DNA from: a virus
Lineage: Duplodnaviria > Heunggongvirae > Uroviricota > Caudoviricetes
Direction: 5' to 3' (one strand)
Virus record (IMG/VR): IMGVR_UViG_3300045988_149282
Location: 33,636 to 97,635 of that record
DNA length: 64,000 nucleotides
The notes under the pieces: generated by a model
Databases searched by the model: none
Told to the model about the DNA's origin: nothing
What the model saw: only the letters and a program-made list of their open reading frames with translations
Translations under genes and position numbers: made by a program
Part shown: positions 8,318 to 60,212 of the stretch, one piece after another
Layout of the letters: each line of letters opens with the position of its first letter
How positions within the stretch are numbered: the first letter of the stretch is position 1

Positions 8318-8395
8318 TTCAATTCGTATGTAAGTGCTTACCTACAATTAGTTTCTAATTTATGATATAAATCTGCCATCCGATTTGACTTATTC

Positions 8396-8731
8396 ATGGA
8401 GGAAGACATGTCAAACGAGATGGCAGGCGTGACGCCAGAGCAGGTGGAGCGCATTGCCGCAATTGTTGCGCGAGAAGTCGTAGGAAAATTAAGTAAGGAG
8501 CTTCGCGATGATATTGGCCAGGAGGTCAACGATCAGCTGCGAACCTACTTTGGCGATATGACTCCGGCGCAACATAGCATTCAGCATTCCAACCTGGACA
8601 AACTTCTTAATCGGCTCGACACGATTTCAAGCGGGTTCTTTGGAGGCATTATTTCCAAGATTACCTCGTTCCTGATCACCGTGCTGCTTTTGGGTTTGGC
8701 CGCTTATGGCGTGAAAAATGGACTGCAATAA
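8396..8731 (+). CDS. putative holin-like small membrane protein
   Basis: 111 aa, single C-terminal hydrophobic helix (ITSFLITVLLLGLAAYGV); GGAGGA RBS; immediately precedes putative lysin and spanins. Confidence 0.35.
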   Translation: MEEDMSNEMAGVTPEQVERIAAIVAREVVGKLSKELRDDIGQEVNDQLRTYFGDMTPAQHSIQHSNLDKLLNRLDTISSGFFGGIISKITSFLITVLLLGLAAYGVKNGLQ

Positions 8732-8744
8732 CAGGAGAACAAGG

Positions 8745-9437
8745 ATGAGTACTCCAAGAGGCATTCGTAACAACAACCCTGGCAACCTGGATAAAGGGTC
8801 GCCGTGGCAAGGGTTAGTAAACAACCCGTCGGAACCGCGGTTCTGTACTTTTAAAGACCCCGTATGGGGGATTCGAGCACTGACAGTAACGCTCATCACC
8901 TACCATGATAAGCGCCGTGCAAAAGATGGCTCCAGCATCGATACGATCCGCGAAGTCATCGAGCGTTGGGCGCCGCCACACGAAAACAACACCGCCGCCT
9001 ATATCAATGAGGTTTCTAAAGCCGTTGGCGTGACGCCGGACATGATCATCGATCTGCATGACTACAATACTATGCGGCCGCTGGTGGAGGCGATTATTCG
9101 TCATGAGAACGGTCGTGGCCCTTTGAAAACACTCAACAGCTGGTATTCGGCCGAAGTTATTGACGAAGGTATGCGTCGCGCCGGCGTCGTTAAACCGGTA
9201 ACTGCAGTGAAAGCCGTACCTGTCACGAAAGAAACTGCAGGCGCAACGGTGACTGCAGGTATCGGTATTGCGCAGCTGGCGGACGTAATGCCGCAGATCT
9301 CCGTTGCGATGGATAAGGCCCAGGGACATATTACCAGCGGGGATACCGTTCGCATTATCTTCGGTATTGCGACCATTGTTGTCGCCGGCTTTATTGCCTG
9401 GTCGCAAGTTCGTAAGCATCAGGCAGGAGTGGTGTAA
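8745..9437 (+). CDS. putative endolysin / cell-wall hydrolase with C-terminal membrane anchor
   Basis: Start chosen at ATG 8745 behind AGGAG RBS (track ORF starts at 8718); conserved GIRNNNPGN motif near N-terminus; C-terminal hydrophobic helix; position between holin-like gene and spanins. Confidence 0.35.
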   Translation: MSTPRGIRNNNPGNLDKGSPWQGLVNNPSEPRFCTFKDPVWGIRALTVTLITYHDKRRAKDGSSIDTIREVIERWAPPHENNTAAYINEVSKAVGVTPDMIIDLHDYNTMRPLVEAIIRHENGRGPLKTLNSWYSAEVIDEGMRRAGVVKPVTAVKAVPVTKETAGATVTAGIGIAQLADVMPQISVAMDKAQGHITSGDTVRIIFGIATIVVAGFIAWSQVRKHQAGVV

Positions 9438-9439
9438 CC

Positions 9440-9691
9440 ATGAACGGCAGCCTGCTTTCAAAGGTCAAATCGACCATCATGACTTTGGCTGCCGTCTTCT
9501 CTGTGCTCGTTGGGGCGTACACCTGGGGTGGACGTGCTGCCCGGCGGGCCATGGAAGAAAAGGCGCAGAGAGAAACCAACAAACGGCTTCAAGGCACAGT
9601 GGATGTGAAAAATGAGACGATTAATGAAGTCAGGACTAAGGATGCTTCTGCCGTTCATCGCGAGCTTCGCGATAAGTGGATGCGTGATTAA
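9440..9691 (+). CDS. i-spanin (Rz-like)
   Basis: 83 aa, N-terminal TM helix followed by charged coiled-coil region; o-spanin gene overlaps its 3-prime end in another frame. Confidence 0.55.
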   Translation: MNGSLLSKVKSTIMTLAAVFSVLVGAYTWGGRAARRAMEEKAQRETNKRLQGTVDVKNETINEVRTKDASAVHRELRDKWMRD

Positions 9692-9839
9692 ACCCCAGAC
9701 CGTGGGCGTACAATTCTGCGATGGGGCTAACCCTATCTACATCAGCAAGGACGACGCCCTGACAGAAGAAACTGAGAGGGAAATCCTGATCCACAACACG
9801 CTGGGTGAGCGAATCTGTGATTGGGGGAAAGGTACATAA
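9612..9839 (+). CDS. o-spanin (Rz1-like outer-membrane lipoprotein)
   Basis: 75 aa, signal peptide with lipobox FAISGC; overlaps i-spanin gene out of frame, the classic Rz/Rz1 arrangement. Confidence 0.55.
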   Translation: MRRLMKSGLRMLLPFIASFAISGCVIKPQTVGVQFCDGANPIYISKDDALTEETEREILIHNTLGERICDWGKGT

Positions 9840-9851
9840 GGAACTGACGTA

Positions 9852-9890
9852 AGATGCGCTTGCGTTGATGTGAGGCGCATCTGTTTCTTC
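9852..9890 (+). terminator. rho-independent terminator after lysis cassette
   Basis: Hairpin agatgcgc...gcgcatct followed by T-rich tract. Confidence 0.5.
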
Positions 9891-10080
9891 TATCTGTAAT
9901 CGAGTAAATGCCGTCATCCAAGTTCACCGAACTTGATTATTCTTCACCGAACTTCACTCAAGGTAATCTTGAATCATCCTGCTTAATGATGTAGATTTAA
10001 CCAACAGCTGACGATGTCGTCAGCCGTTAGACCTGAAAAGGTGCCGCAATGACACTTGTGTTAACGGCTAAGGTGGATAT

Positions 10081-10500
10081 ATGCTAAATTATCATGACAA
10101 TACGCGTTCTATGCAGACGATCCGCACCAATACTGCGGTTATCGACAGCTTTCCTATGCGTATTCACAACAGTGAAGACGCAGTAGAAGTGCGACGTATG
10201 TTGTGCCGTGAATCAGCTAACCGCCAGCACTTCATCGTCACTTTTAAGAGCGATGTGGCGCGTGCCGAAAAGATCTCTAATTCTACGTCACTGGTTAAAC
10301 CGTTGGCCGAGGTTGTCACTAACGGTAAACGAACCTCTTTTGTTTTAGATGTTGCTGAACAATATCCTGACTTGAAGTGTTTAGATCGTGATATTTCTTC
10401 ACGAATCAAACAAGTTGTAGAGTCTTTTATGAAGAAATTCTGTAAAATCGATGATATGGAACCATCAACGGCACAGAATACTTCATGGCACCATCTCTAA
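10081..10500 (+). CDS. hypothetical protein (cargo cassette gene 1)
   Basis: 139 aa ORF, no recognisable motif; overlaps next gene by 16 nt. Confidence 0.4.
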   Translation: MLNYHDNTRSMQTIRTNTAVIDSFPMRIHNSEDAVEVRRMLCRESANRQHFIVTFKSDVARAEKISNSTSLVKPLAEVVTNGKRTSFVLDVAEQYPDLKCLDRDISSRIKQVVESFMKKFCKIDDMEPSTAQNTSWHHL

Positions 10501-11258
10501 TTGGTCAGGCGAACAGATTAATCCCTGAAATAGAAGACTACAGCAAGGTCTTGTCTGAAATGCCGAGAGCGACGAGAATTATCGCTCTCGGTGAGTTCTA
10601 TTTTATCTCCCGAGGTTTCGATCTAATTCGATTTACCGAATACGAGCTTGTTGATTCGGCCTATGAACGCTGTATTGTTGGCGAGTGTCTTGAGTCATGT
10701 GATCCTGATTACCAAGAGCAGGAAGTTAAGCGACTCAAACGTGCTGGTTACACACCTCTTGAGATAGGAGCAGAAATTGAATCCTACAAGTTGCATGTGG
10801 GGCAGCCAGTCCAAACAGTCTTCCGCGTGGCCTACTGCGAGTTTCCAATCAAGGATAAATCTGGAGTAAAAGTCAGCGCCAAGCAGATTAGAGGGGTTTT
10901 TACTCATGCTGATTATATGGGATTAGGCATCGCAAGTTTTGCTTACCTTTATCTCGTAGATAAGTATCAGTACTTGGTTTGCGATACGTTACAGACGGTA
11001 AAAGGCGCAACTCTTTGGGCTGTGAGTATGCGCAAACATGGACTGGTCGAAATTTACGATACGAAGAACGAAAATTTTATAGAGGAATTGGGTGAGGATG
11101 CCTGTGGCGTAAGTGGTTTTATTCCGTGGGATATCGGTAAGTCTGACGGAGGCCAGATGCGAAGACGTGAAGAGTGGGGGACTAATAAAATCAATCTCAC
11201 CCCAGGTGCTTGTACTCATATAGTGAACATTCTGAGTAAACGATCTATGAATCAATAA
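10485..11258 (+). CDS. hypothetical protein (cargo cassette gene 2)
   Basis: 257 aa ORF, translationally coupled to the upstream gene, followed by a strong terminator; no recognisable motif. Confidence 0.45.
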   Translation: MAPSLIGQANRLIPEIEDYSKVLSEMPRATRIIALGEFYFISRGFDLIRFTEYELVDSAYERCIVGECLESCDPDYQEQEVKRLKRAGYTPLEIGAEIESYKLHVGQPVQTVFRVAYCEFPIKDKSGVKVSAKQIRGVFTHADYMGLGIASFAYLYLVDKYQYLVCDTLQTVKGATLWAVSMRKHGLVEIYDTKNENFIEELGEDACGVSGFIPWDIGKSDGGQMRRREEWGTNKINLTPGACTHIVNILSKRSMNQ

Positions 11259-11283
11259 ACCCGCTACGGCGGGTTTTTTGTTA
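11259..11283 (+). terminator. rho-independent terminator
   Basis: cccgctacggcggg hairpin followed by TTTTTTG. Confidence 0.7.
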
Positions 11284-11406
11284 TTAAGCCCACCTATGTA
11301 CCTATCATTAAACCTTTACACCGCAGCCGTAGGCATTTAGGCTATATCACATATAAGAAAACAAGTTGTTTCAGACGATAATTATATACGCAAAGGGAAC
11401 TCTCCA

Positions 11407-12434: not shown

Positions 12435-12486
12435 AAATCATGCATTGGCGCGTACATTGCGCCAATGCATAACTACAGTGTCAGCT

Positions 12487-13254: not shown

Positions 13255-13364
13255 TATTGCATCTCTTTGCTACTGACTAATGCGTTCTATTTTACACATA
13301 AGTTTTTAATCAATTTAACAGGCTCAAAGTGTAGAGCTTCTGGGCGTCTAAGACGACAAGTTAT

Positions 13365-13420
13365 GCCTGCTTCTGTATATATAAATAATAAGTAACTTAT
13401 TAAATATATACGGAAGCAGG
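13365..13420 (+). terminator. long-stem hairpin, terminator-like (copy A of a duplicated element)
   Basis: 17-bp stem cctgcttctgtatatat / atatatacggaagcagg with AT-rich loop, followed by TCTTTT; near-identical element at 58497-58553. Confidence 0.5.
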
Positions 13421-13527
13421 TCTTTTAAAAGACACCACCAGAACAACTCCCTTCCGTTTCCACTTCCAAAAACTGCCACCAGTCGCTATCATCCGCTCAT
13501 TGTGATAAGTAAGTAACTACCTACCAG

Positions 13528-14277
13528 GTGAGCCACATGAGCCAAATCTTTTTCGATACCATCGACAACGACCAGTACGACTTCATGACAGAGTGGAATA
13601 CCGCTGTTATGGACAAGTGGGTCGCTGAAAACATTGGTTTGTCGCGCTGTAAAGACGAGGCTGAACTCTTCGAGACGAAGTGGTTTGATTACCGCGACAT
13701 GCATCCTCTCATGGCCACCTGTCTTTTTACGGAGGCATACAAACGTCAGTACTCAAATATCATGCTGACGCACGGTCGCGAACACTTTGAAACAGCTCCG
13801 TTCACCACCGGGTTAAAACGCCTGCCTTATCAGGAGTTGTCGACTGCCAATAAAACGTCGCTATGGAAAGCACGCCAGTTTGCGGATCGCTATTGCTGCT
13901 CATACGACTACTTTATCTCCACCGTTCTTTCCGCAGCTGCACGACGGCTGTGGGACAAGCTGCCGCGCCCACAGCATTTATGGCAGCCAGAACTGATTGA
14001 GATATTTGAAGAGAAATTAGCCAGACGCGCAACAACCCGTCTGGATGACTCTCTGGTTAGCTTTAAGCATATGGGAGACATGCAGTTCAACCCGATTCAG
14101 GAAAGCTATTTTGAGTGGATTCTGGAGCGTTTGCGCACCATCCCTCGCAGCAAGCGCATACGCGCAATTTTCTCCGCTATCTGGCTAATGGAAATCGTTC
14201 CAGAGCGCCTTATTTCCGCCCACTTTCCAGAAGAACTGGAAGAAGCACGGCGGTTTATTGATCCCCTATCTAATTAA
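13528..14277 (+). CDS. hypothetical protein (possible replication accessory/helicase loader by position)
   Basis: 249 aa ORF with RBS; directly upstream of DnaB-like helicase; no motif recognised. Confidence 0.4.
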   Translation: MSHMSQIFFDTIDNDQYDFMTEWNTAVMDKWVAENIGLSRCKDEAELFETKWFDYRDMHPLMATCLFTEAYKRQYSNIMLTHGREHFETAPFTTGLKRLPYQELSTANKTSLWKARQFADRYCCSYDYFISTVLSAAARRLWDKLPRPQHLWQPELIEIFEEKLARRATTRLDDSLVSFKHMGDMQFNPIQESYFEWILERLRTIPRSKRIRAIFSAIWLMEIVPERLISAHFPEELEEARRFIDPLSN

Positions 14278-14320
14278 CTAATACTAGAAAACAATTTGTT
14301 TAAAAAACAAAGGAAAGCAC

Positions 14321-15661
14321 ATGACCGAACTTTGCCATACAGGACGCGGGCTGTCCGAAGAGTTTGATGAAGATTTCCAGAACAGACTGACGGCATATTT
14401 TTGTCGTGATCACGAGTTTCTTACTCGTGCGGGAGATCTGGTTGTGCCTAGCCAGTTTGCCAATGCGGCCAATGCCATATTGGTTAATATGGTTTCGGGC
14501 TATTACCGTATGTACAAGAGCGCGCCCTCTTCATCTGCAATTCTGGATATGCTTAAGCGTGCGAAACGCGATAAGACTATCCGTGAGGAACTATTCGCCG
14601 ATGTTGTTGCTGCGTTTAAGCGCATTCTTGCAGAAAAATTGTCCGATACCTCGTACATGGTTGACCAGGTATCAACCTTCGCAAAAAGTGTAGCGTTTGA
14701 TGATGCTCTGATTAAGGCTGCTGAACTGAAAGAGAAAGGCGACTTTCAGGGGGCGATGGCAATCATGGCCAAGGTTCAGCAGATTGGATCGAACGAAGCG
14801 ACCGGAATCTATGACTACTACACCTCCGCAAGTGAGCGATTGAAAGCGCGTGAATATGAGGCTTCAGAGGAGTATGTACCAAACAGTATTACAACTGGAC
14901 TCCCTCTTCTCGATAGGTTGCTGTACCAAAAAGGCTGGGCAAAGCGCGAAATGGTGCTCTTCATGGGGTTCGCTAAATCCGGTAAATCGACCGCAATGGG
15001 TGAGTTTTCCATAAACGCAACGCTTGCTGGCTACAATGTTCTGTATCTCTCGCTGGAGGTTCACACCACCATTTTATCCGACCGTTTTGATGCAAGATTG
15101 TCGGAGACAGAAATGTCCAAGCTGGTGGAACGGCGCGATGAGGTTCATCGTAAGTTGGCAGAGTTGGGAGCCACGAAGGGGATTGGTAGTTTGTGGGTGG
15201 TTGAGCGTCCGTCAGGAAGTATGTCACCGGCAGATCTGGACCGTATGCTTAACAGCATGAAAGCCAACGGCATGGTGCCTGACATGGTTGTTGTCGACTA
15301 CGCAGATTTGATGCGTGCCAGTTATGACCTTCGTGATGATCGCGCCAACATTCGTAGCATCTACACCGATTTACGTGCTCTTTATGACAAGCATAACGTT
15401 GCTGGGATCACGGCATCGCAGACAAACCGTGAAGGTGGCGCGTCAGAAGTTGCCACAATGATGCACGCTGCCGACAACATCGAAAAAGTACGTATTGCTG
15501 ACCTGGTAATAACGATCAACAAAACCGAAGAAGAAGAAGCGAAAGGAGAGGCTCGTCTCTACTTTGCCGGTTCACGTAACCAGCAGGGAGGGATCAGCAT
15601 TCGCGTTAAACAAAACCTCGAACAAATGCGCTTCATTGAGCGAATCTTAGACGTTACCTAA
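14321..15661 (+). CDS. dnaB: DnaB-family replicative DNA helicase
   Basis: 446 aa; Walker A GFAKSGKST, Walker B MVVVDYADLM, SQxNR-like ASQTNREG motif. Confidence 0.7.
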   Translation: MTELCHTGRGLSEEFDEDFQNRLTAYFCRDHEFLTRAGDLVVPSQFANAANAILVNMVSGYYRMYKSAPSSSAILDMLKRAKRDKTIREELFADVVAAFKRILAEKLSDTSYMVDQVSTFAKSVAFDDALIKAAELKEKGDFQGAMAIMAKVQQIGSNEATGIYDYYTSASERLKAREYEASEEYVPNSITTGLPLLDRLLYQKGWAKREMVLFMGFAKSGKSTAMGEFSINATLAGYNVLYLSLEVHTTILSDRFDARLSETEMSKLVERRDEVHRKLAELGATKGIGSLWVVERPSGSMSPADLDRMLNSMKANGMVPDMVVVDYADLMRASYDLRDDRANIRSIYTDLRALYDKHNVAGITASQTNREGGASEVATMMHAADNIEKVRIADLVITINKTEEEEAKGEARLYFAGSRNQQGGISIRVKQNLEQMRFIERILDVT

Positions 15662-15667
15662 AAAATA

Positions 15668-15695: not shown

Positions 15696-15742
15696 CATTG
15701 GTGAAACAACTTTTCTTTTGCCAAACCACAAAAGAAAAACAC

Positions 15743-16924: not shown

Positions 16925-16999
16925 CAATCACCTTTAAAATAAGTAGATGATTACTTATCTTTCTGTGAGAATACTTTCATCTGTTAGCTAGGAGTTGGT

Positions 17000-17782
17000 A
17001 TGAAAGACGAAATTCAGAAATTAGCCTGCGACATCATTGATAAAACTGGTTTAGAAATCAGCGAGAGCAATCGGCTAGACATCATTGAAAAAGCCGTAAA
17101 AACAGCAATGGATCATATCGCCACTCGTTTGGTCGAGATCCCGCTACCGGGGCTACCTTATCTGAAGGTTAAGTTACACGTATGGGGTGAACCTTCTTGT
17201 GCACGGCGTTCTGCATTAGTTGTTTTTATTAGCAAAGAAAACCCGATCAGTCTTAAAGTGCAGGTTGGGGCATGGATGGATGGCAAAGTGATCTACACAA
17301 ATACCGTTTTTTGTGCGTCAAATGACAGTATTATTGAAGAGGCTATTCAAGAATCACTTCTAACTATGCATAGCTTATTTTTGCTGGAAGACAAGCAAAA
17401 CTACGAAGAGTACTTACGGTCGATAAAAGGTGAGAGAACATTGTCACTTAAAGCCGATTTCGTTACCCCGACAAACCTGTTGGAAGTCTTGCTTAATAAA
17501 GGGGCTAATGATGCCGTAAATGTAATCAGAGAGAGTGAGTATGCGTCTCTTTGCGACATGTGCAAAAGCCAGTTGGATCTGGTGCATATCGTTATTGATG
17601 CTGGGAAGGCATGTGATGGCGTAATGGCGGAGTTTGCTGGGAAGATGGTCAGGATTGCTAACGAATTACCGATGATAGAGCAAGAGGCTAAATCATACGC
17701 CACCAATCATGTCACAGAGCTTCTTGTCCCCTATCGCTTAGAAAGCGATCAGCGCAAGATGATTAGCTGGGGAAGTTGGTAA
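17000..17782 (+). CDS. hypothetical protein
   Basis: 260 aa ORF with RBS; no motif recognised. Confidence 0.4.
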   Translation: MKDEIQKLACDIIDKTGLEISESNRLDIIEKAVKTAMDHIATRLVEIPLPGLPYLKVKLHVWGEPSCARRSALVVFISKENPISLKVQVGAWMDGKVIYTNTVFCASNDSIIEEAIQESLLTMHSLFLLEDKQNYEEYLRSIKGERTLSLKADFVTPTNLLEVLLNKGANDAVNVIRESEYASLCDMCKSQLDLVHIVIDAGKACDGVMAEFAGKMVRIANELPMIEQEAKSYATNHVTELLVPYRLESDQRKMISWGSW

Positions 17783-17837
17783 TCTCTCCGCGCGTCGTTT
17801 TTTACGCAAATAACGATAGGTAAGTACAAGATTATTT

Positions 17838-30367: not shown

Positions 30368-30571
30368 GTGCGTAAAGGATGTTTCGGCTCTCTTATCGCT
30401 GCTTCTGAAACTGGTAAGGCTTGTCTGGTGTGTCCAGACAAGCCCGATTGTCACCAATCAGCAAAAGAAGTTGCGATTTCGATGCATGGGAAGTTCGTAG
30501 GCTTCCCCAATGACAAAATCAAAAAAACCAGAAAGGTAAAAACACATGAAGGCACTGATGGTTCGAACTGA
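30368..30571 (+). CDS. hypothetical small Cys-rich protein
   Basis: 67 aa ORF with C-x-x-C-containing pattern (CLVCPDKPDC); overlaps start of Pol III gene. Confidence 0.2.
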   Translation: MRKGCFGSLIAASETGKACLVCPDKPDCHQSAKEVAISMHGKFVGFPNDKIKKTRKVKTHEGTDGSN

Positions 30572-33500
30572 CTTCTCACTTGGGGAGTCGGCTTTAAAAG
30601 CAGAAAACGCGGTGAAGATTGCCAGAGAAGCTGGCTACACCGCTGTAATTTCAGCAGATAGCATGAATATTGCGAGCGTTATTCCACTACAACGTGCCGC
30701 TGGTGACGACATGGCGGTTATTTGTGGTGTGAAACTAAACATTGTTGATGATCCCACATACGAGCACCGGGTTAAACTTGCTAAAGAATCTATGAGATGT
30801 ATGGAATCATTAGAGCGGGGACGTAACTACTCGTTTACCGCTCTAATTAAAAATGAGCAAGGATATCGCGACATCTGCGAACTAATGACGGTGGCCAACA
30901 CACGAGAACAGTTCTACTTTGTACCGCGTCTCTCGCTCGAACAGTTGGTTTCTACATATGCCAAAGGCAACATCATCCTGCTCACTTCCGACATCGATAG
31001 CGTGTTCCAACGCAACGATTTTGCAAAAATCACAAGCTCACTGATTACAGCGGGCGGGAAAGACAACTTCTATAGCGTGGTTTATCCGCACCCTACCCCA
31101 TTCTACGACCAGATTAACGTCCGGGCGATGAAAGTCGCCAGCGCATTGAAAATAGAGCCAGTGGCGTTCTATCCCGCTTATTACGAATCGATCGACGATG
31201 CAGACATTAAAGACATTGCGCACATGGTTACGAACAACATAAAAATCGACCAGCCGCATCGTCTGCGTATCCCCCACCAGCGAGATAACGCCATCAATGG
31301 TCGTCGCCATCTCCTTGAGGCGCTTAAAGCCTTCTCCATTCGCATGGATGTGCCGGTAACAGCTGCAATGGCCTCAACAACGCAGGATACCATTATCGAT
31401 GCCTGCACATGGCGCTGGCATGAATTGCCACCAGCACTGCCCAAGATGGCAGACGACGAACCTGCAACGCTGATGAAACTGGCTGTTGCAGGGCTGCGTA
31501 AACGTCTTACCACAAAAGAGTTTGGATACACACCACCTGCTTCTGAGAACAGGGTTTATGTTGAGCGGCTAAAGTACGAAATGGACACGCTGACTCGCCT
31601 GGGATTCTGTGGTTACTTCCTGATGGTGCGCGATCTGATGAATCATAGTCGTGAAACTGGCATTCCCGTTGGGCCTGGTCGTGGTTCCTCTGCCGGTTCT
31701 CTGGTGGCGTGGTGCATAGGCATAACCAACGTCGACCCAATCCGTCACGGTCTTCTGTTTGAGCGTTTCATCAACCCTGAGCGTCTCGACTTGCCGGATG
31801 CGGACTTGGACTTCAGCCAGGCACGTCGCCATGAGGTGATCGAGTATCTGAATGAACGCTACGGCGAAGATTACGTTGCAGGCATTCCGAACTTCACCTA
31901 CCTGGGCGCAGCCTCTGCACTACGTGACACCGCTCGTATTTATGGTGTGGAGTCCGCAGATATGGCGGTATCAAAAGAACTGAAGAACGTCGAGGATGAT
32001 AGCCTTCCATTGGAAGAGCTGCGCGAACAACTGGCAAGTCTCGACAAATACGCAACAAAATATCCTGATGCATTCAATGCAGCCTGCAAGTTACAAAGCC
32101 TTATGCGTGGCTTTGGTAGACATGCGGCAGGGATGATCGTAGCAGGTGTTCCTCTGACAGAACGTACACCGGTTGAGCGCCGTGGTGACGCGCGTTGTAT
32201 CGCATTTGACAAGCGTTACTGCGAGGCTATGGGCCTAATTAAGCTGGACGTACTTGGTCTGGCAACTCTCGATTTGCTCGATAGTGCAAAACGCTACATA
32301 AAAGAGAACACAGGTGAAGATATCAATCTTGATGCCATTTCTCTTGAAGATCGCAAGGTGCTGGATGGTTTTGCTGCTGGGTACACTCAAGGTGTTTTCC
32401 AGCTTGAATCAGGCCCAATGCGCAAGCTGCTTAAAGATTTAGGTGGTGGAATTGAGCCAATGAGCTTTAAAACGGTTGTTGCTACGACTGCGCTCTTCCG
32501 GCCGGGGCCAATTCAGTCAGGCATGTTGGATGACTATGTTTCTGTAGCCAAAGGCTTTATGACGCCGGAATCATTACACCCCGTTCTTGATGAACTTACC
32601 GCAGAAACAAATGGCGTGATTCTCTATCAGGAACAGACGATGAACGCGACTCGATTGCTTGCTGGCTTCACAATGGCTGAAGCTGACGGCGTTCGTAAAG
32701 CGATCGGCAAAAAAGACATGGAAAAAATGAAGAGCATGGGCGAGAAGTTCATCGTTCAGGCTCAAGCTGGCTGGATAGACGTTGAGCTGGAAGATGGCAC
32801 TACACAGCGCATTCACCGTGCGGAACATTTTAAATGCGAAGACGGAACTCTGAAAACTGTCGAAGAGGCACTTGAGTACGGCGCAAAACTACCTATAAAC
32901 GCAGTACGCGTTACAGCGTCACATCCAGGGCTATCAGAGATGAAAGCGAAGGAGATCTGGACCGCATTCGAAAAGAATGGTGCCTACCAGTTCAACAAAT
33001 CACACTCTGTTGCTTACTCCTTAATCAGTTATCAATCTATGTGGTTGAAAATTCATTATCCCGCGGAGTTCTTCGCTGCTGCTCTCACTATTCTTGGCGA
33101 AGATAAACACCAGGGGCTGGTTAAAGATGCGCTGACCTATGGTATTCGCGTATTGCCACCAGACGTTAACGTGTCATCTAACCGAATCGAGATCCGCACG
33201 CTTGAAGATGGCAGCCAGGTGCTGTATGCGCCCTTCTCTGCTGTGAAAGGGTGTTCTGAGAATGGCTGCCAAGCCATCATGAGAGCGCGAGAAAAAGTTG
33301 GCGGCAAATTCGAGTCACTGGCGCAATTCGAAGAAGCTGTCGAGAAACGTGCCTGTAATAGTCGAGTGCGCGAATCGCTGCAAAAAGTAGGGGCGTTTGC
33401 ATCCATCGAGCCAGGCAGTCTGCCAGCAACTGATCCAGAGCGCCTACGCGACCAGGCTGAATTGATGGGAAACCTTGTCATAGACGCAGTTAAAGCCTCA

Positions 33501-34621: not shown

Positions 34622-34738
34622 TTTTTGATAGATAATAAGTAAGTACTGATCTATCATTTAACAGCTCGAAAGAGCCACGAATGAACGAAAGCCCAACGCG
34701 CATAGCGCCATCGGCCAAATCACAACAAGGAGAAACAC

Positions 34739-37040: not shown

Positions 37041-38114
37041 ATGGCAAAAGGAAAATCCGCACTGGCACTTGCTCTGAAAAAGAAAATCGGTAGCAACGAC
37101 GAAATTCAGAAAGTAACTCATTGGATTGATACAGGCTTTCCACCGTTAAACAAAGCTATTTCTGGTCGTTACGATGGCGGCTTCCCATGTGGTCGTATCG
37201 TCGAAGTATTCGGTCCTCCAAGTGCAGGGAAAACGTTCCTTGCAACAGCAGCGATGATCTCCGCTCAAAAACAAGATGGTCTGGCGGTATTCCTCGATCA
37301 TGAAAACAGTTTTGACGTTGGCCTGGCTGTAGCCAATGGCCTGAACGCAGATGAGGATGACGGTCAGTGGGTATACAAGCAGCCTGATACCTTCGAAGAC
37401 TCTGTAGAGTTGATCGGCACAATTCTTAAATTGGTACGTGATGAAGAGCTTATTCCTGAATCAGCACCTATCTGTATCGTGGCTGACTCACTTGCGTCTA
37501 TGGTTCCGAACTCCAAAGCCGAGAAGTTCGAAAAGATGGCTGAAGGCACTGCCAAAGACAAAGATCAGCTAAACATGAACGACAATACGGCACTGGCTCG
37601 TGCGACAAGTGCGAACTTCCCTACTCTGGCTTTGTGGGCACGCAAATACAACGCCTGCATCATCTTCTTGAATCAGGTTCGCACAAAAATCGGTGTAATG
37701 TTTGGCGACCCTACTACGTCTCCAGGTGGAGATTCACCGAAGTTCTACGCTTCTGTACGTATCCGTCTTGGTGCATCGGTGATGAAGGATGGTAAAGAGA
37801 AGATCGGCCAGGACGTAGGCGCAGAATGCATCAAAAACAAAGTTGCACCACCGTATGGCAAATGCACCTGGAAATTCTACTTCGATCCTACTCGTGGCCT
37901 CGACGTTATCGAATCGCTCGTCGAGTACATGCTGGAAGAAGGATACCTGCCAAAGAACGCCAGCGGGCGAGTTGAAATTGGTGACAAGAAATACACCAAA
38001 TCGCAGATCGTCGAGATGTATCGGGAGAAGCCACTGGCTGAAATCATTGCGGCTTTGCAGGCAATCGACGACCGAAGAGCAAAAGACAACCCAACCGAGT
38101 CAGTAGAAGAGTAA
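37041..38114 (+). CDS. RecA/UvsX-family recombinase
   Basis: 357 aa; Walker A GPPSAGKT within RecA-like core, Walker B-like IVADSLASM; AAGGAG RBS. Confidence 0.7.
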   Translation: MAKGKSALALALKKKIGSNDEIQKVTHWIDTGFPPLNKAISGRYDGGFPCGRIVEVFGPPSAGKTFLATAAMISAQKQDGLAVFLDHENSFDVGLAVANGLNADEDDGQWVYKQPDTFEDSVELIGTILKLVRDEELIPESAPICIVADSLASMVPNSKAEKFEKMAEGTAKDKDQLNMNDNTALARATSANFPTLALWARKYNACIIFLNQVRTKIGVMFGDPTTSPGGDSPKFYASVRIRLGASVMKDGKEKIGQDVGAECIKNKVAPPYGKCTWKFYFDPTRGLDVIESLVEYMLEEGYLPKNASGRVEIGDKKYTKSQIVEMYREKPLAEIIAALQAIDDRRAKDNPTESVEE

Positions 38115-38119
38115 ACACA

Positions 38120-38146
38120 AGGCGTCCACAGGACGCCTTTTTTATC
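38120..38146 (+). terminator. rho-independent terminator
   Basis: aggcgtcc aca ggacgcct hairpin followed by TTTTTTA. Confidence 0.7.
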
Positions 38147-38206
38147 TCTTGAAAATATATAAGTACTTACTTATTATTTTCGCATAACAACCACATAGGA
38201 AAACAC

Positions 38207-39758: not shown

Positions 39759-39813
39759 TCGCCTATTCATAACTAACAAAATAAGTAAACACTAACCACA
39801 AAAGGAAAAACAC

Positions 39814-40089: not shown

Positions 40090-40128
40090 GTTTACAGTAA
40101 AGTTTATATAAGTTAGTATCTACCTATC

Positions 40129-40305
40129 ATGAAGATTTTTATTGAATACTTGTTACTCATCGTTTCAATAGCTTTTGTCATCGACTGCATTTTCACTGGT
40201 GTCATTCGTAAAGTCTTTTCCCCGGTGCACGACGTAGTCATAAACGCTTTGGCTATCGTGCTCGTATTTAATTCAGCATTTGATGTAATCAAAGAGGTGG
40301 CAGCA
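40129..40305 (+). CDS. small membrane protein
   Basis: 58 aa, not in ORF track; hydrophobic; stop overlaps next start (ATGA). Confidence 0.25.
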
Positions 40306-40898: not shown

Positions 40899-41433
40899 CA
40901 CCGCTGACAGCATACACAATCAACTACCGCTGATAGCATATCGAGAGTCTATCTCACCGCTCACAGCATACTTTACTCGATTTTTTACCGCTGACAGCAT
41001 ACTTAAGAAATTGCATGAATAATGTGTCCCGGTATGGGTATAACCAGAACAAAATTACCGCTGGCAGCATACGAATGTCTGACATATACCATTAATTACC
41101 GCTGATAGCATATCCAAACAAAAATTCCTCAATAAAACACCGCTGACAGCATACGTTCTATCAGGGAGTAGCAGGCAATAAATGCCTTTCACTACAAGCA
41201 ATCAGCGCAATAGCAATAGAATGTTAGTGAGCGCAAACCTATATGGAATGCACTCTTCGAGGTTAGTAACCACTGGGGAGGTATGACAGAGCATTGAGTG
41301 GTGATAGATGATTTACCGCTCACAGCATACGTTCATCTCACTATACCGCTGGTAGCATATCTTTAACCGTTCACAGCATACTTTTCAGAAAAATAGCCGC
41401 TGATAGCATACATTTCACCGCTGACAGCATATC
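40899..41433. repeat. iteron array (12 copies of ~17-19-bp repeat ACCGCTGA[C/T]AGCATA[C/T]) downstream of repA; incA-like copy-control locus
   Basis: Copies at about 40899, 40926, 40955, 40987, 41056, 41097, 41139, 41313, 41345, 41365, 41395, 41416 with irregular spacing. Confidence 0.75.
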
Positions 41434-42526
41434 AAAGCAGTTTGAGACTATTGGAAAGGATCTCAATCATCTTGATATTTTCAGGCGTCAAATTCTGCGA
41501 AAGTTCGGTTATCTTGTTGATAATGTTCTGTTTGGCATCAATTTCCCCAGCTTTCTCATCTGGTTTTTTGGGTTCGATGTCTTCAGGTTTTGGCGGTGCG
41601 ACTTTGAGTTTTGGATTGCGGCTGTGAATCTGGATATAGATCGACCGCCCACGCTTAATCTCGCTGTATTCGAGATAGCCCAAATCTTGGAGAGCTTTTA
41701 AGCCGTTACGTATAGTCTGATTCTGCGAGCTGACATTCCTGCTACTCAAATTGAGTCGCGCACGCAATCGAGCAAGCGATACCGGCGCAGGCTTGGTAGG
41801 AAGACTTTCGATGAAGGTGTACAGAGCCTGTGCTGTTTCTTTGCGTGGTAGCTTATTGATAACCTTTAACTGCAAAAGAACCTTATGGTCAAAGCGATAT
41901 AGTTCGGCCAGCTTCGGTTCTGCATAGAACACCACCGTATCTTTCTGCTCGTTGTAGTCCACGCTATTGATGAGGTGCACCATCAGAAGCGAGATCTTGT
42001 TAGAGCCGTCGACGTTCTTTTCTTCATACGTTCTCTGGAAAGACAGAGTTGTACGCATGATCTTCAAAAGACTGTTTGTAAGCCGGTCGCGGAGTGTTTT
42101 GCGGATCTGTGACGATGGATAGCCACAAAACTTAGCAAATTTCGTGATGCTTAACTCGACACGACCGTTAGGTTCGCCGTATTCTGCCAGCGAACGCACA
42201 ACGCCCACCCACGTTTTGAAATCATGATCCATGTCGAGACGAGGACCGGTTATCTTGATATCGGAATAGCCTTCAGAACGGGCTACTTCGAGCTGGACAA
42301 GCTCCTTTGAAGCATCAATCTCATTTGGCTTGTTACGTTTACTGTATTTTGTTCCCTTAAGCGTGGGGACGAACAACCCCAGTCGCATCAACGCAATTGG
42401 TTGGACTGTATTGTTGCTATTAGGGACAAGTTCCCCTGTGTACAATTCAAGGGAACCTTCTTCAAAGTTGTCGATGTTATCTTCTACTTCTTTGTTATTT
42501 TTACCTTTTTTATTTTTTGTGGACAT
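41432..42526 (-). CDS. repA: plasmid replication initiator RepA (iteron-binding)
   Basis: Gene bracketed by iteron arrays; basic Lys-rich N-terminus; start set at ATG 42526 (MSTKNKKG) because the track extension to 42646 runs through the upstream iterons. Confidence 0.65.
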   Translation of the reverse strand: MSTKNKKGKNNKEVEDNIDNFEEGSLELYTGELVPNSNNTVQPIALMRLGLFVPTLKGTKYSKRNKPNEIDASKELVQLEVARSEGYSDIKITGPRLDMDHDFKTWVGVVRSLAEYGEPNGRVELSITKFAKFCGYPSSQIRKTLRDRLTNSLLKIMRTTLSFQRTYEEKNVDGSNKISLLMVHLINSVDYNEQKDTVVFYAEPKLAELYRFDHKVLLQLKVINKLPRKETAQALYTFIESLPTKPAPVSLARLRARLNLSSRNVSSQNQTIRNGLKALQDLGYLEYSEIKRGRSIYIQIHSRNPKLKVAPPKPEDIEPKKPDEKAGEIDAKQNIINKITELSQNLTPENIKMIEILSNSLKLL

Positions 42527-42545
42527 GTGGACACCTTTGTCATTC

Positions 42546-42651
42546 AACCGCTGACAGCATACTTGATTTGCCGCTGACAGAATACCAAAAACAGTTGGCA
42601 GCATACGGTGAACCGCTGACAGACTATCAATTACCGCTGACAGCATACATG
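42546..42651. repeat. origin iterons (5 copies) upstream of repA
   Basis: Copies at about 42546, 42570, 42594, 42611, 42631 of the same ACCGCTGACAGCATAC repeat. Confidence 0.7.
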
Positions 42652-42683
42652 AACATGGCTTCAGACCAGTCGTGGCGCGGCTT

Positions 42684-42765
42684 ACAGCGATCGGGGATCT
42701 TATTTGATCTATACAAGGATCTATCTATGGATCTCTTTATTAGGATCTATCCTGTGGATATGTGA
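42684..42765. promoter_or_regulatory. GATC (Dam-site) cluster with DnaA-box-like sequence; part of replication origin
   Basis: Six GATC within ~60 bp (cgatcg, ggatct x4, tgatct) followed by cctgtggata resembling a DnaA box (TGTGGATAA). Confidence 0.55.
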
Positions 42766-43492: not shown

Positions 43493-43746
43493 CCCTCCAG
43501 ATCGTATATTGGCGTAGATAGAATCTACGCCTCCTCAAAATAGCTCTCATAGCGTTCTACAGTGATCCTGTCTTATTTTTAGTCATACAGACAAGCAAAG
43601 TTGCTCCACAATAAATAGGTATATACTTACTTATAAATTTTGTATATTAAGACGCTCGTTTCATTCCTAACATACCGTTATGCATAGTTGTTTACCTTCT
43701 CATTGCTCTTAAAATTTGTATCAAAATAACCACAAAGGAAAAACAC

Positions 43747-48290: not shown

Positions 48291-48324
48291 TTTCATTGAT
48301 AGGTAAGTGCTTATCTATTAACAT

Positions 48325-48356
48325 GGGCCACTATATTTAGTGGCCCTCTTTATTTG
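48325..48356 (+). terminator. hairpin with T tract between resolvase and nrdA (terminator or 5-prime UTR attenuator)
   Basis: gggccact atattt agtggccc followed by tctttatttgg. Confidence 0.5.
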
Positions 48357-52874: not shown

Positions 52875-52943
52875 TTGTAGGTAGTTATCTATCTGTGTAT
52901 ATTGCATTTGCGCGTTAAATTTCTGAAACAACTATTCGTTTTT

Positions 52944-52968
52944 GGTGGCCTATGGCCACCATTTTTTT
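52944..52968 (+). terminator. rho-independent terminator
   Basis: ggtggcc tat ggccacc hairpin followed by ATTTTTTTAT. Confidence 0.7.
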
Positions 52969-53045
52969 ATCTATCTGGTCTTGTTCTCTCAATAAATGTA
53001 AACTCACACAATGAATAAGTGGTTACTTATCTTTGTGAGGTTTTT

Positions 53046-54149: not shown

Positions 54150-54150
54150 T

Positions 54151-55681: not shown

Positions 55682-55742
55682 AAATTGTTCGCCTCTTCGA
55701 CATTGCGACAATAAAACTCTCAAAATGGGTTAAGGATAAAAA

Positions 55743-56162: not shown

Positions 56163-56171
56163 GGAGTTCTG

Positions 56172-56729: not shown

Positions 56730-56733
56730 AACA

Positions 56734-56771
56734 AAAGCCTACTTTAAAAAGTTTAAAGTAGGCTTTCTTTT
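56734..56771 (+). terminator. rho-independent terminator
   Basis: aaagcctacttt / aaagtaggcttt 12-bp stem followed by CTTTT. Confidence 0.65.
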
Positions 56772-56887
56772 AAAGAACAGTCGCCTTTCAATCATTTCCT
56801 GCCTGTATTTAATACTTTTCCGCCTGATAGGTTTAGTCAAAATGCAGCTATCGAAATGCAAATGTAACCAAACAGAAGGAGACTTAC

Positions 56888-57697: not shown

Positions 57698-57880
57698 CGT
57701 TCCCCTACTTAAAATAAAGCCCATAGAGAGCTTTATAGTACTGGGTAAGCCAATCACATACCCAGCACCACAAAAACGCGCCAGAGAGCTTCTCGTTTGC
57801 ATTTCTGGCGTGTTTTATTTGATTGCCAGACATAAAATCAAATGCAAAAATAGGTATATACTTACCTATCGAGAAAGAAG

Positions 57881-58474
57881 ATGATTGCAGCCGAAAAAAT
57901 CAAACAGCGAAAGCGCGACAACTCTCTTCGTGACCTCTGGAGAACACCTGACTGGCTGTTTTCTGCCATTCAACGTTATCTTGGAGTGACATTTGATGTT
58001 GACGTTGCCTGCAACAAGGACAATGCAAAGCTGCCTAATTTCATAGGCGTTGAGCGTGATGCTTTGAAATCTGAATGGGGACAGCCAGGTACAATTGCCT
58101 TCCTCAATCCACCCTACTCCAAAATCTACCCCTGGATTGATGCGGCTATACGTGAGCAGGCTCGCGGAGTTACAACAGTGATGCTAATTCCTCAATCCCT
58201 CGATACAAAGTGGTATGAGCGTGCAACAGAGTGTGCGAATGAGACGATTATTCTGTCTGGTGGCCGCGTAGCGTTTGTCGAGCCTGACGTAAATCTGGGT
58301 CAGGTAGAAGTAAACATCAACCCAGGTGGCAGTATGCTCGTTGTTTTTCGAGGATTCTGTCAGGACGCTGGGCACTCTATAAGCAAGATCCCTTTGGACG
58401 TCATGAAAAGTCTGGGAGGGTATGATCCTGCGAATGTGATCAGGAAAAAAAGACCATCAAAGAAGGCTGCTTAG
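57881..58474 (+). CDS. dam: phage-type DNA N6-adenine methyltransferase (Dam family)
   Basis: 197 aa; WRTPDWLF motif and catalytic NPPY tetrapeptide typical of phage Dam-family MTases. Confidence 0.7.
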   Translation: MIAAEKIKQRKRDNSLRDLWRTPDWLFSAIQRYLGVTFDVDVACNKDNAKLPNFIGVERDALKSEWGQPGTIAFLNPPYSKIYPWIDAAIREQARGVTTVMLIPQSLDTKWYERATECANETIILSGGRVAFVEPDVNLGQVEVNINPGGSMLVVFRGFCQDAGHSISKIPLDVMKSLGGYDPANVIRKKRPSKKAA

Positions 58475-58496
58475 TTTGTTCTGGTGTCTGTAATTA

Positions 58497-58553
58497 GCCT
58501 GCTTCTGTATATATAAATAACTACATATTAATTATTAATATACGGAAGAAGGC
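58497..58553 (+). terminator. long-stem hairpin terminator (copy B of duplicated element)
   Basis: gcctgcttctgtatatataaataa...atatacggaagaagg with T tract; first 24 nt identical to copy at 13365. Confidence 0.55.
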
Positions 58554-58659
58554 TGTTTTGTATCAGAGACTCCAGACCTGAACATCACTACAGAATCCAC
58601 TAGAACCCCTTCCCAGACGCTTTAAAATCGATTTTATGAACCACTTTAAGGAAACCAAC

Positions 58660-58890
58660 ATGTCATACCCGACTAATGTCGTTGCGCTCGTAGAGAGCGA
58701 TTTTCTGGCCCAGGCTCGTGAAATGATGAAAGATCGTGAGCAGGCTTTCAACTTGTACGAATGGGCAATTAAGTGCTTGCATCTTGGCGAGCATCGCGAA
58801 CTTGTTGAACAGCTTTTAGGTGAGTTGATCAATGAGGTGTTTGCCTTGAATGTTCAACTACATGGTAGAGAAAATAATCAATCACAATGA
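58660..58890 (+). CDS. hypothetical small protein
   Basis: Start chosen at ATG 58660 behind AAGGAAACCAAC (track start 58636); helical, no motif. Confidence 0.3.
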   Translation: MSYPTNVVALVESDFLAQAREMMKDREQAFNLYEWAIKCLHLGEHRELVEQLLGELINEVFALNVQLHGRENNQSQ

Positions 58891-59473
58891 TAGATAAGTA
58901 CAAACTATTCATAAAGTGAATTGTAAGTGCTAAGATCTGATAGTTTCCAGTCGTAGACTGGAGACTCGACCTGATGGGTGGGGGTAAGCGTCACTGGCGT
59001 CAGGTTTAAAAAAGCTCACTACCAGCGTAGAACTGGTGCCGTTTAGGTGTCGGGGAAGGGGGAACCAAAGTGAGCAGAGACAAGGGTCACTTTATGATTG
59101 TCGAGTCTGGGGTGTTTCGAGAGGTTGAATCCAGTACTCCCCTTCATAAAGTGTGGGAAGATCTCGGTTCTGGGGTGCTGTCATCCATAACTTCCCAAGT
59201 CTAAGCTGGCAGTAGACTTAGACCATAACTTTTCAGGTTATGAAACGACCAGGTTGGTGAGAGATTTTTATACTCACCTCCCTGGGAGAGTATTACCTGA
59301 AAAGACAACCTCTCACTTCGTTCGAGGTGAACTTCACTCACTTCGTTCGTTCAGTTCAGGTTTATAAAAACCTGTTCTGGGAAGTAATTTGTTTATTTTA
59401 ATAATTATTAACACGCACGCGTGTGCGCACGCGCGAGGAAAAAATCGGCGCGGCGCTTGATTCAGGAGTTTAT

Positions 59474-60064
59474 ATGACGACGAAGACACCAGCCCGATCG
59501 CAAGCAAAAACTCGCAAAAAAGCCAAAAACAAAAATTCTCCCCGCACCAATCCCACAACGCCTGTCGTAGAGTTCAATCCCCAGCTCAAAACCGTGAAAA
59601 TCTTTAGTGATGGCTCTTGCCTTAAAAATCCGGGTGGCCCGGGCGGTTACGGTATCGTTCTCCAGTATCGTGGTGAGGAACGCGAATTCTCAGATGGTTT
59701 TCATAGCACCACCAATAACCGCATGGAGATGATGGGGGCACTTATCGGGCTGGAGCGTTTGAAATATCCATGCAACGTTATTTTGCACTCTGATAGCCAG
59801 TATCTGAAAAACGGCATGACACAGTGGATGAAATGGTGGAAACGCAATGGATGGATGACTTCTGACAAAAAACCGGTAAAGAATGTTGATCTGTGGAAGC
59901 GTCTGGATGAGGCCGCAAGTCGACATAATGTTCGCTGGAAGTGGGTTAAAGGTCACGCCGGGCATCGTGAAAATGAAATATGTGATCGACTCGCGAAGAT
60001 CGCAGCTTTTTCAGCAGCAGATATGCCTCACAAGAAAGATATTGGTTTTGTTTATAACAAATAG
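59474..60064 (+). CDS. rnhA: ribonuclease HI
   Basis: Collinear with E. coli RNase HI ([50 protein letters not shown]); start at ATG 59474 behind AGGAG (track start 59423 adds an unlikely N-terminal extension). Confidence 0.85.
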
Positions 60065-60212
60065 TAAGTAAGTGTTTACCTATCATTTCAAATCATGTAT
60101 CTTATCGGCGTCAGGATGACAATGTGTTGGTAAGACACAGTTCCAGGATGGAACGAGAAAGGCGGCTGGCAATCGCCAGCCGCAACTCTTTCTGACACTG
60201 GATGGAGTCCAC

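Follow-up and report, generated by a model that had tools for sequence, protein, structure and literature searches.

What is the function of a short palindrome that recurs at one gene junction after another in an SSU5-like phage-plasmid of Escherichia coli? The 64-kb stretch of DNA analyzed here, which we refer to as the window, is part of such an element: its bases 20000 to 44000 match plasmid NZ_CP083480.1 (111,656 bp) over their full length at 99% identity, and the same stretch is 96 to 99% identical to phages Cyrano, PhiR41_1, and CMS-2020a and ∼79% identical to Salmonella phage SSU5. Nearly all genes of the window lie on the + strand, and intergenic DNA makes up 12.8% of it. The genes comprise tail and lysis genes, parA, a helicase, a primase, a ligase, four tRNAs, an integrase/XRE module, CobT/CobS-like genes, dnaE, recombination genes, a RepB-type replicon with iterons, nrdAB, and thyX, among others. 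We conclude that the palindromes are very probably operators of some dimeric DNA-binding protein. The fuller statement, that they belong to one repressor which silences the lytic genes and that its candidate is a 128-amino-acid XRE protein encoded in the window, is in our judgment evenly balanced; within it, we infer both that the effect is repression and that the XRE protein is what binds.

The original prediction listed 16 coordinates for the family, and a related sequence is present at all 16. Fifteen of these positions align without gaps as (A/T)A-TAgGTA-AGTaCT-TACyTA-TC. The core, which had been described with a variable gap, is a contiguous 20-mer. The consensus is the 20-bp palindrome ATAGGTAAGTACTTACCTAT, which a partly conserved outer G and C extend to 22 bp, (G)ATAGGTAAGTACTTACCTAT(C). 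The simple pattern TAGGTAAGT, allowing up to one mismatch, gave 26 matches against 8.6 expected, while ATARGTA-N6-TACYTAT with up to two mismatches gave 16 against 0.35, a number that none of 100 shuffles reached. An unseeded count of all hexamer dyads with spacers of 0 to 10 ranked TA[AG]GTA-N6-TAC[CT]TA first, with 11 members compared to at most 5 in dinucleotide shuffles. The prediction had staked the family on enrichment over shuffled intergenic sequence, and here a matrix built from the sites of Salmonella phage SSU5 alone scored 18 window positions as peaks of 12 bits or more, every one of them intergenic, compared to 0.37 peaks in the shuffled window and 0.19 in shuffled intergenic DNA.

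Thirteen of the 16 listed sites are strong, at 18 to 26 bits, and those at 26396 (14.2 bits), 29051 (10.7 bits), and 52877 (14.0 bits) are weak. Members beyond the earlier list occur at 17816, 58890, 22782, and 39781, together with a degenerate intragenic one at 27721 (Table 1). Two other matches, at 13381 and 58509, were set aside because they belong to a separate long-hairpin element and not to the palindrome family. The genes served by the sites are those of the lytic cycle (DNA metabolism, lysis, and the virion), and sites are absent from plasmid-maintenance and accessory genes.

The motif is conserved among relatives of the element. The pattern is found 11 times in 50 kb of SSU5 (0.19 expected), where the matrix finds 27 peaks genome-wide, 9 times in Klebsiella phage pJN2-26 (0.31 expected), and 5 times in the SSU5-like part of Yersinia pestis pMT1 (0.17 expected); a second Klebsiella lineage is also enriched. 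In several cases the sites of relatives lie at the same gene junctions as in the window, and strong sites occur at about the same distance into the CobT-like gene where the window has its degenerate intragenic member (21.1 bits in SSU5, 22.0 bits in pJN2-26, and a match with 2 mismatches in pMT1). The full related plasmid (112 kb) carries about 27 sites. Seven sites of more than 20 bits are in the late virion-gene region outside the window, at or adjoining gene junctions and in one case in the 3' end of the portal gene, and a matrix scan of this complete plasmid found no sites in the ∼14-kb accessory region on the far side of the window. Among viral contigs, ATAAGTA-N6-TACTTAT turned up mostly as single chance matches.

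A distant relative with such a network is the Acinetobacter baumannii plasmid p107.0Kbp, which is syntenic for the helicase, primase, ligase, helix-turn-helix (HTH) protein, CobT-like protein, AAA ATPase, dnaE, exonuclease, recombinase, and sbcCD. The window matrix finds a single match above 13 bits there (18.1 bits), and this is itself an Acinetobacter-type site. An unseeded dyad count on p107.0Kbp recovered a different palindrome, ATCAGTCAGTACTGACTGAT, at 11 places in 33.7 kb, and the junctions that carry it include that upstream of sbcD, the CobT-like/AAA ATPase junction, and that upstream of the gene preceding the 5'-3' exonuclease, which corresponds to the gp32-like position in the window. 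The ATCAGTCAGTACTGACTGAT pattern does not occur in the window. The Acinetobacter change is symmetric, TAAGT becoming TCAGT and ACTTA becoming ACTGA, and such a joint change of both halves is what is expected of an operator coevolving with a dimeric binder. We note that each half-site reads as tandem tetranucleotides (positions 2 to 9 and 12 to 19), TAGG-TAAG in the Enterobacterales and TCAG-TCAG in Acinetobacter, such that the binder may contact two subsites per half, or four subunits may bind.

A repeated palindrome could equally be read at the RNA level, as a hairpin serving as processing site, stabilizer, terminator, or translational operator, or as a mobile palindrome like the repetitive extragenic palindromes of bacteria. 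The location of the sites has some appeal in this respect, as many of them hug the upstream stop codon (relative intergenic position below 0.25 in 9/16), terminator hairpins follow several of them, and an FljA-like RNA-binding repressor is encoded outside the window. We examined covariation among 37 distinct sites from two genomes by comparing mirrored positions with column shuffles. Watson-Crick pairs at mirrored positions numbered 269 compared to 267.7 ± 5.1 in the shuffles (p = 0.44), and changes at variable position 4 (A/G) are independent of those at its partner 17 (C/T), meaning that the sequence is conserved and not the pairing. In RNA folding, strong members such as those at 13505 and 34635 are unfolded at 0 kcal/mol and the best palindromes reach only −4 to −6.6 kcal/mol; the T-run that is a hallmark of terminators was not found at the sites. 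The lack of covariation and the weak folding indicate a protein-bound DNA site, and we regard an RNA hairpin or mobile palindrome as very unlikely.

The hairpin element set aside above is separate from these sites. It is long and near-perfect (∼57 to 61 bp, gcctgcttctgtatat...atatacggaagcagg) and lies at 13365-13421 and 58495-58555 of the window, near 13992 in the full plasmid, at 33473 and 78319 in SSU5, and at 14859 in pJN2-26. The two window copies fold at −30.2 and −21.1 kcal/mol (z-scores of −8.4 and −5.1), and the first holds a compressed mini-palindrome, ATAAGTAACTTAT, in its loop. The element may be a strong bidirectional terminator or another protein site. As for RNA-binding proteins, the gene for the FljA-family protein lies at 103522-104046 of NZ_CP083480.1, in a leftward operon adjoining the late genes; the protein matches PF03614 (repressor of phase-1 flagellin) at E = 1.5e-84 and has a weak Hfq-like match. 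Further, the Acinetobacter relative has an Hfq-annotated protein; post-transcriptional control may thus be part of SSU5-like elements.

The original prediction offered promoters for a dedicated sigma factor or RNA polymerase as an alternative to operators. A conserved 20-mer ahead of many co-oriented genes, in DNA where ordinary promoters are scarce, would suit such an arrangement. The motif is, however, a true palindrome: its two halves match the consensus equally (8.73 compared to 8.49 of 10 positions), leaving it without polarity relative to gene direction, and both halves changed together in Acinetobacter. There is also no fixed distance to a −10 element, some sites lie 11 to 13 nt from start codons or upstream of terminators, and no such sigma factor or polymerase gene is annotated in the three annotated relatives, NZ_CP083480.1, Cyrano, and SSU5. 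We therefore consider dedicated-polymerase promoters highly improbable. The other proposal made at the outset, a genome-wide network in the manner of the dispersed C1 operators of phage P1, has fared well. The sites behave as symmetric targets of a dimeric protein, without pairing covariation, and their halves have changed together in a distant lineage.

The relation of the sites to host promoters bears on how a bound protein would act. In three window segments (8000-64000), sigma-70-like matches are fewer than in shuffles (23 compared to 37.5, 16 compared to 27.9, and 14 compared to 26.6), a sign that chance host promoters may be selected against. In the DNA surrounding the sites, the best sigma-70 score favors the gene strand over the mirror strand (7.76 compared to 5.58 bits; 31/41; Wilcoxon p = 1e-4), a difference that stems from the flanks because the core is symmetric. 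The position of the site relative to the promoter varies: it lies in the spacer at 34635, 38155, and 40108, just downstream of the −10 at 57850, and elsewhere over the −35 region, with the best −10 starting at site position 18, −3, 21, 12, 31, or 35 and a similar spread on the mirror strand. Such variable geometry is typical of repressor operators and unexpected for an activator. Terminators come before the sites at 38155 and 53011 and after the site at 48299 and the one behind the major capsid gene. We also observed that the palindrome can lie 1 to 11 nt upstream of a terminator-like hairpin (48299-48346 in the window; 19459, after the major capsid gene, 29503, and 43482 in the full plasmid). 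There, a transcript from a site-linked promoter would start inside the 5' arm of the hairpin, whereas read-through from upstream would terminate, and an insulated-promoter design is possible.

Expression of the site-linked genes could be followed in a supplementary RNA-seq table for phage Cyrano in E. coli LF82, which compares the lysogen in LB with bacteria in macrophages (PMC9928086). The Cyrano lysogen expresses plasmid-maintenance, toxin-antitoxin, integrase, and XRE genes, the XRE gene at 96 compared to a median of ∼10 (PMC9928086). Site-linked Cyrano genes, in the same table, are at background level in the LB lysogen. Values drop from 55 (CYRAN_30) to 6 (CYRAN_31) over the stretch in which the long hairpin accompanies the orthologue of site 13505; a second drop, from 31.5 (ASCH gene) to 7.5 (SbcD), spans the orthologue of site 43615. 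CYRAN_56 has a near-consensus promoter, TTGAAA-17-TATCAT, with a palindrome in its spacer as at 38155; it is at the detection floor in LB and ∼40-fold up in macrophages at 6 h. CYRAN_60-62, which lie behind a site of the 40108 type, go from the floor in the lysogen to 8.3 to 9.0 log2 in macrophages while the upstream gene 59 stays at ∼5. In all, CYRAN_56-57, 60-62, 5, and 12-13 rise by 3.7 to 6.3 log2 (∼13- to 80-fold) in macrophages, and their upstream neighbors do not. The silence of a good host-type promoter in lysogenic cells speaks for active repression at the site.

The most highly expressed prophage gene of that data set, at ∼700 times background, is CYRAN_43 (555 bp). It has the same length as a 184-amino-acid open reading frame (ORF) of the window (22150-22704), lies on the opposite strand in Cyrano, and is probably the counterpart of that ORF. 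In the window, this ORF is preceded by a terminator (22011-22067) and then by TTGACA-16-TATCGT, the best canonical promoter of the region.

An activator that replaces the −35 contact, as Lpa does at the late promoters of P1, would give the sites the opposite meaning, namely lytic promoters that are switched on after induction. Much in the promoter data is compatible with this, since canonical −35 hexamers next to the sites are mostly poor, sigma-70-like matches are depleted in the window, and the right end of the motif with its flank reads TAT-C-(A/T)-T, which is −10-like; moreover, the P1 Lpa boxes AAGTTACTT and ATGTGACTT resemble the core AAGTACTT, and SSU5 grows lytically without the XRE module yet retains the sites. 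Against it, the distance to the −10 is not fixed and the mirror-side flanks are nearly as −10-like, and the best promoters have good −35 hexamers that would need no activator, yet are silent in the lysogen. Sites stand ahead of early, middle, and late genes alike, and one lies over the −10/+1 of the XRE promoter. A tblastn search with P1 Lpa found no homologue in the full plasmid or SSU5 (nothing better than E = 0.4), and phrog_1704 was matched by Lpa alone among the proteins tested. We consider an activator an unlikely binder.

As to the repressor, the leading candidate is the 128-amino-acid HTH protein encoded at 25978-26364. It matches HTH_19 and phrog_8, and a structure model shows a five-helix XRE domain whose nearest structures, with weak scores, are C.BclI, C.AhdI, C.Esp1396I, Stl, P22 c2, and 434; a sequence search of the PDB with the HTH protein gave no match. 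The palindrome at 26396-26409 had been called the best of the family and placed 32 bp upstream of this gene. The placement relative to the ATG at 26364 is correct. The ranking is not: two positions differ from its own reverse complement, and at 14.2 bits it is one of the weaker members. It does lie at the promoter of the regulator as anticipated, the site at 26393-26412 overlapping the predicted −10/+1. The XRE promoter is covered by a site not only in E. coli but also in Acinetobacter, the L141 lineage, and two Klebsiella lineages, with one or two sites in some lineages; in Klebsiella, the site/promoter block is the best-conserved part of the XRE upstream region, and the L141 variant lineage has a 24.7-bit site at this position.

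XRE homologues are almost confined to contigs of 100 to 116 kb, and the repressor-integrase module is found in 865 plasmid records that include Acinetobacter, with the XRE gene and the palindrome network co-occurring that far. A profile search of genome contigs with the HTH alignment gave 6 loci and no new lineage, and a Thauera plasmid with a distant HTH protein was discarded as a conjugative plasmid that is not a relative. Among motif-sharing enterobacterial homologues, the most conserved stretch is GYKN(A/P)NNLSLIKSGKIPLP, in the recognition region; at residue 39, the TARGTA lineages have N and the Acinetobacter TCAGTC lineage has R. In a lineage with KYQNQVSF in this region (P0032; comparison over 20 kb), the variable half-site base is shifted to T/A in 5/12 half-sites compared to 4/82 (Fisher p = 0.0014). 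Three motif variants stand beside three recognition-region variants, representing only 2 to 3 independent events. Two other candidates from this locus were rejected: an inverted repeat, GTTACAACC/GGTTGTAA, that flanks site 26393 and might have been the true HTH operator has a left arm that is not conserved in Klebsiella, and the divergent 70-amino-acid protein (26615-26827), considered as a Cro analogue, is acidic and without a DNA-binding signature. NCBIfam and Pfam searches of the small neighboring proteins found little. In Y. pestis pMT1 (locus 22245-27373), the integrase/XRE module of the SSU5-like backbone has the caf1 (F1 capsule) operon as its immediate neighbor.

SSU5 itself lacks ∼5.6 kb between tRNA-Asn, the first tRNA gene, and the CobT-like gene (SSU5 ∼42600-42760 compared to window 21303-26925). 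The window counterpart of the missing stretch contains the integrase and XRE genes together with grxA, the remaining three tRNA genes, and the 70-amino-acid ORF. The sequence at the SSU5 junction is divided between two separate places in 822/822 related plasmids, including Enterobacter plasmids that are 98 to 99% identical to SSU5, which marks SSU5 as a recent deletion derivative. That a plaque-forming isolate is without exactly the XRE module fits a lysogeny repressor, and SSU5 seems to have arisen by an immunity deletion from a plasmid prophage of the Enterobacter or Salmonella type.

The operators could nevertheless be as described and be read by a different protein of the element, of which CYRAN_117 (92 amino acids), an 88-amino-acid winged-helix-like protein encoded next to the small terminase, and a KorB-like ParB_N protein are the candidates. 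CYRAN_117 reaches 114 in the lysogen, where the background is ∼10, and SSU5, with its retained sites, has this protein too; the late operon begins with two ParB_N proteins; and by inference a tandem tetranucleotide half-site (TARG-TAAG) would suit a ribbon-helix-helix tetramer. However, homologues of CYRAN_117 occur in 824 plasmids with no Acinetobacter among the organisms named, though Acinetobacter has the network, Pfam finds no DNA-binding domain in CYRAN_117 or the 88-amino-acid protein and no HTH in the ParB_N proteins, and the ParB_N genes are silent in the lysogen. We think it improbable, on balance, that one of these is the binder in place of the XRE protein.

Several observations weigh against repression by the XRE protein and temper our confidence in it. 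Many sites have only weak sigma-70 matches, and one Cyrano gene with a strong site ahead of it, CYRAN_34, shows moderate expression in the lysogen all the same. Simple promoter occlusion is inapplicable at some sites, which either lie 11 to 13 nt from a start codon or are flanked by a stop codon and a terminator, and roadblock action is possible there. The KYQNQVSF variant differs at five residues within and near the recognition helix, but the core TAnGTA..TACnTA is unchanged. All links to the XRE protein are correlative, and any other DNA-binding protein encoded by the element would diverge between lineages too; CYRAN_117 is likewise expressed in the lysogen and conserved in SSU5. Finally, SSU5 keeps its sites without the XRE gene, although this is neutral given the recent-looking deletion.

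We hypothesize that the palindromes act as double-stranded DNA operators to which one phage-plasmid protein binds as a dimer or a dimer of dimers. While the element is a plasmid prophage, this protein would block the host sigma-70 RNA polymerase at the promoter spacer, at the −10/+1, or at the first transcribed bases, and at sites without an evident promoter it might act as a roadblock, so that a single repressor could hold off the whole lytic program. By way of the weaker site at 26393-26412, the XRE protein would restrain its own promoter as well. More tentatively, and with slightly less confidence than we give the repressor assignment, we propose that ∼27 operator-gated units and one small XRE repressor run the whole lytic program across SSU5-like phage-plasmids, including those of the Salmonella Typhi pHCM2 type and pMT1, and that operator and repressor have coevolved into immunity types (TARGTAAGT, TATGTA-rich, and TCAGTCAGT) at the same junctions from the Enterobacterales to Acinetobacter. 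If true, this would be a case of operator replacement throughout a regulon, usable to predict and reengineer immunity and induction in resistance-carrying elements.

Clinical Enterobacterales commonly carry SSU5-like phage-plasmids, a group to which Y. pestis pMT1 also belongs. The consensus, the ∼27 mapped sites, the candidate repressor, and the lineage variants make the circuit directly testable, and the motif provides a sequence marker for transcription-unit boundaries and immunity groups, and so a way to predict coexistence and induction of elements. The network appears to be undescribed: a description of the motif was not found in the searchable literature, and searches on SSU5 regulation gave no operator study, nor did we find an account of how lysis and lysogeny are controlled in this group.

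Table 1. Palindromic sites and the candidate regulator gene in the window, with scores and surroundings.
Feature	Position	Strand	Bits	Surroundings and relatives
Site GTATGTAAGTGCTTACCTAC	8326-8345		21.9 (23.5 with SSU5-trained matrix)	Between tail-fiber stop codon and holin gene; orthologues at SSU5 27474 and pJN2-26 9443
Site ATAAGTAAGTAACTACCTAC	13505-13524		23.5	Ends 13 nt before ATG at 13537
Site ATAAGTAGATGATTACTTAT	16939-16958		21.5	0 pattern mismatches; after primase stop codon, upstream of gene at 17000; TTTAAA-17-TATCTT in register (read by eye)
Weaker site ATAGGTAAGTACAAGATTAT	17816-17835		14.3	Good left half only
Site ATAAGTATTTACTTACTTAT	20461-20480		24.8	10 nt past stop codon, upstream of tRNA cluster; kept in SSU5 (41773), pJN2-26 (23367), and pMT1
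Weak site CTATGTAAGTCCTTACCTGC	22782-22801		12.6	
Site ATAGGTTTTTACTTACCTAT	24347-24366		22.4	Divergent region between − strand gene 22956-24251 and grxA
XRE-type HTH gene, 128 amino acids	25978-26364	−		Leading candidate binder; identical to CYRAN_45, "putative repressor"
Site TCTGGTAAGTGCTTACCGAT	26393-26412		14.2	Over −10/+1 of HTH gene promoter
Predicted sigma-70 promoter of HTH gene	26411-26438	−		TTTACA-16-TAATAT; both hexamers kept in pJN2-26
Degenerate site	27721-27740		12.6	Inside CobT-like gene
Weak site AATGATAAGTTACTACTTAC	29048-29067		10.7	Between CobT-like and AAA ATPase genes; Acinetobacter site at same junction
Site ATAAGTAAGTACTGATCTAT	34635-34654		23.4	Upstream of gp32-like gene; TAGATA-17-TATCAT in register (34629-34657); junction also bears sites in pMT1 and Acinetobacter
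Site ATATATAAGTACTTACTTAT	38155-38174		24.4	Fills spacer of TTGAAA-17-TATTAT (38149-38177); terminator 38119-38139 just before
Weak site ATAAGTAAACACTAACCACA	39781-39800		11.2	Left half only; SSU5 has a 22.3-bit site at junction
Site ATAAGTTAGTATCTACCTAT	40108-40127		22.2	TTTATA-16-TATCAT in register (40103-40130)
Site ATAGGTATATACTTACTTAT	43615-43634		25.2	Upstream of sbcD; Acinetobacter site upstream of its sbcD too
Site ATAGGTAAGTGCTTATCTAT	48299-48318		25.9	8 nt past stop codon, 6 nt ahead of terminator 48325-48346, upstream of nrdA; TTGATA-17-TAACAT in site region
Weak site GTAGGTAGTTATCTATCTGT	52877-52896		14.0	Directly past stop codon
Site ATGAATAAGTGGTTACTTAT	53011-53030		18.1	Past terminator 52943-52961, 16 nt before thyX ATG
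Site ATAGGTATATACTTACCTAT	57850-57869		25.6	Just downstream of TTGCCA-17-AAAAAT (TG-extended; 57823-57851), 11 nt before methyltransferase ATG
Weaker site ATAGATAAGTACAAACTATT	58890-58909		14.7	Overlaps stop codon
Site GTAAGTAAGTGTTTACCTAT	60064-60083		24.0	End of ORF 59423-60064; SSU5 orthologue 27.4 bits

The window holds other repeated sequences besides the palindromes. Iteron-like direct repeats at 40900-41430 and 42549-42650 (CAGCATAC, 10 copies; CGCTGACAG, 8/9 copies in the window) flank the RepB-type initiator gene at 41432-42646 (− strand), and this region is the plasmid origin. A conserved translation start context, AAAGGAAAAACACATG, recurs at 30541, 34734, 38202, 39809, 43742, 50780, 60994, 61717, and other positions, and AACACATG occurs 11 times, always on the + strand and in 8/11 cases at annotated start codons. 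The RecA-like gene at 37041-38114 is intact in the window (357 amino acids), is annotated as two coding sequences in NZ_CP083480.1, and measures 2340 bp in Cyrano, which suggests that one of these relatives has a frameshift and that the other has acquired an insertion, perhaps an intein or homing element.

Networks of dispersed prophage-repressor operators are already known in concept from P1 and L5. In mycobacteriophages L5 and L1, the repressor gp71 has ∼30 stoperators in short intergenic regions throughout the prophage, including the inside of long operons, and these asymmetric 13-mers, with one working orientation, are thought both to stop transcription and to occlude promoters. Multiple asymmetric operators are mentioned in PMC1934351. 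The element studied here resembles L5 in having many repressor sites genome-wide and differs from it in that the sites are symmetric and show no orientation bias.

On plasmid RK2, KorB has 12 OB palindromes that are scattered over the plasmid at variable distances from promoters and serve global repression. KorB differs in being a ParB-family protein with an HTH; the two ParB_N proteins here are without a Pfam-detectable HTH and are at background level in the lysogen. The dimeric XRE repressors (434, P22 c2, C.AhdI, C.Esp1396I, and Stl) share the predicted fold and palindromic operators read as dimers with our candidate, but these systems have few operators at one locus, compared to ∼27 over 100 kb here, and their sequence similarity is negligible.

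Phage P1 offers two comparisons. Its Lpa late promoters also carry an inverted repeat (9-bp, at −22) ahead of the −10, at ∼11 promoters, but the half-site spacing is off by 1 bp and the sites of the window are not limited to late genes. The P1 C1 system, too, belongs to a phage that lives as a plasmid and has one repressor whose operators (Olpa, Oc1a-e, and others) are scattered at lytic promoters and at its own gene. C1 is, however, an unrelated and larger protein with operators that are asymmetric 17-mers, single or paired, and the late genes of P1 are under separate Lpa control, whereas here sites are also found inside the late structural operon. The system of the window probably works like the C1 regulon of P1 but is not a member of it, being built on a 20-bp palindrome and a candidate binder of the XRE fold.

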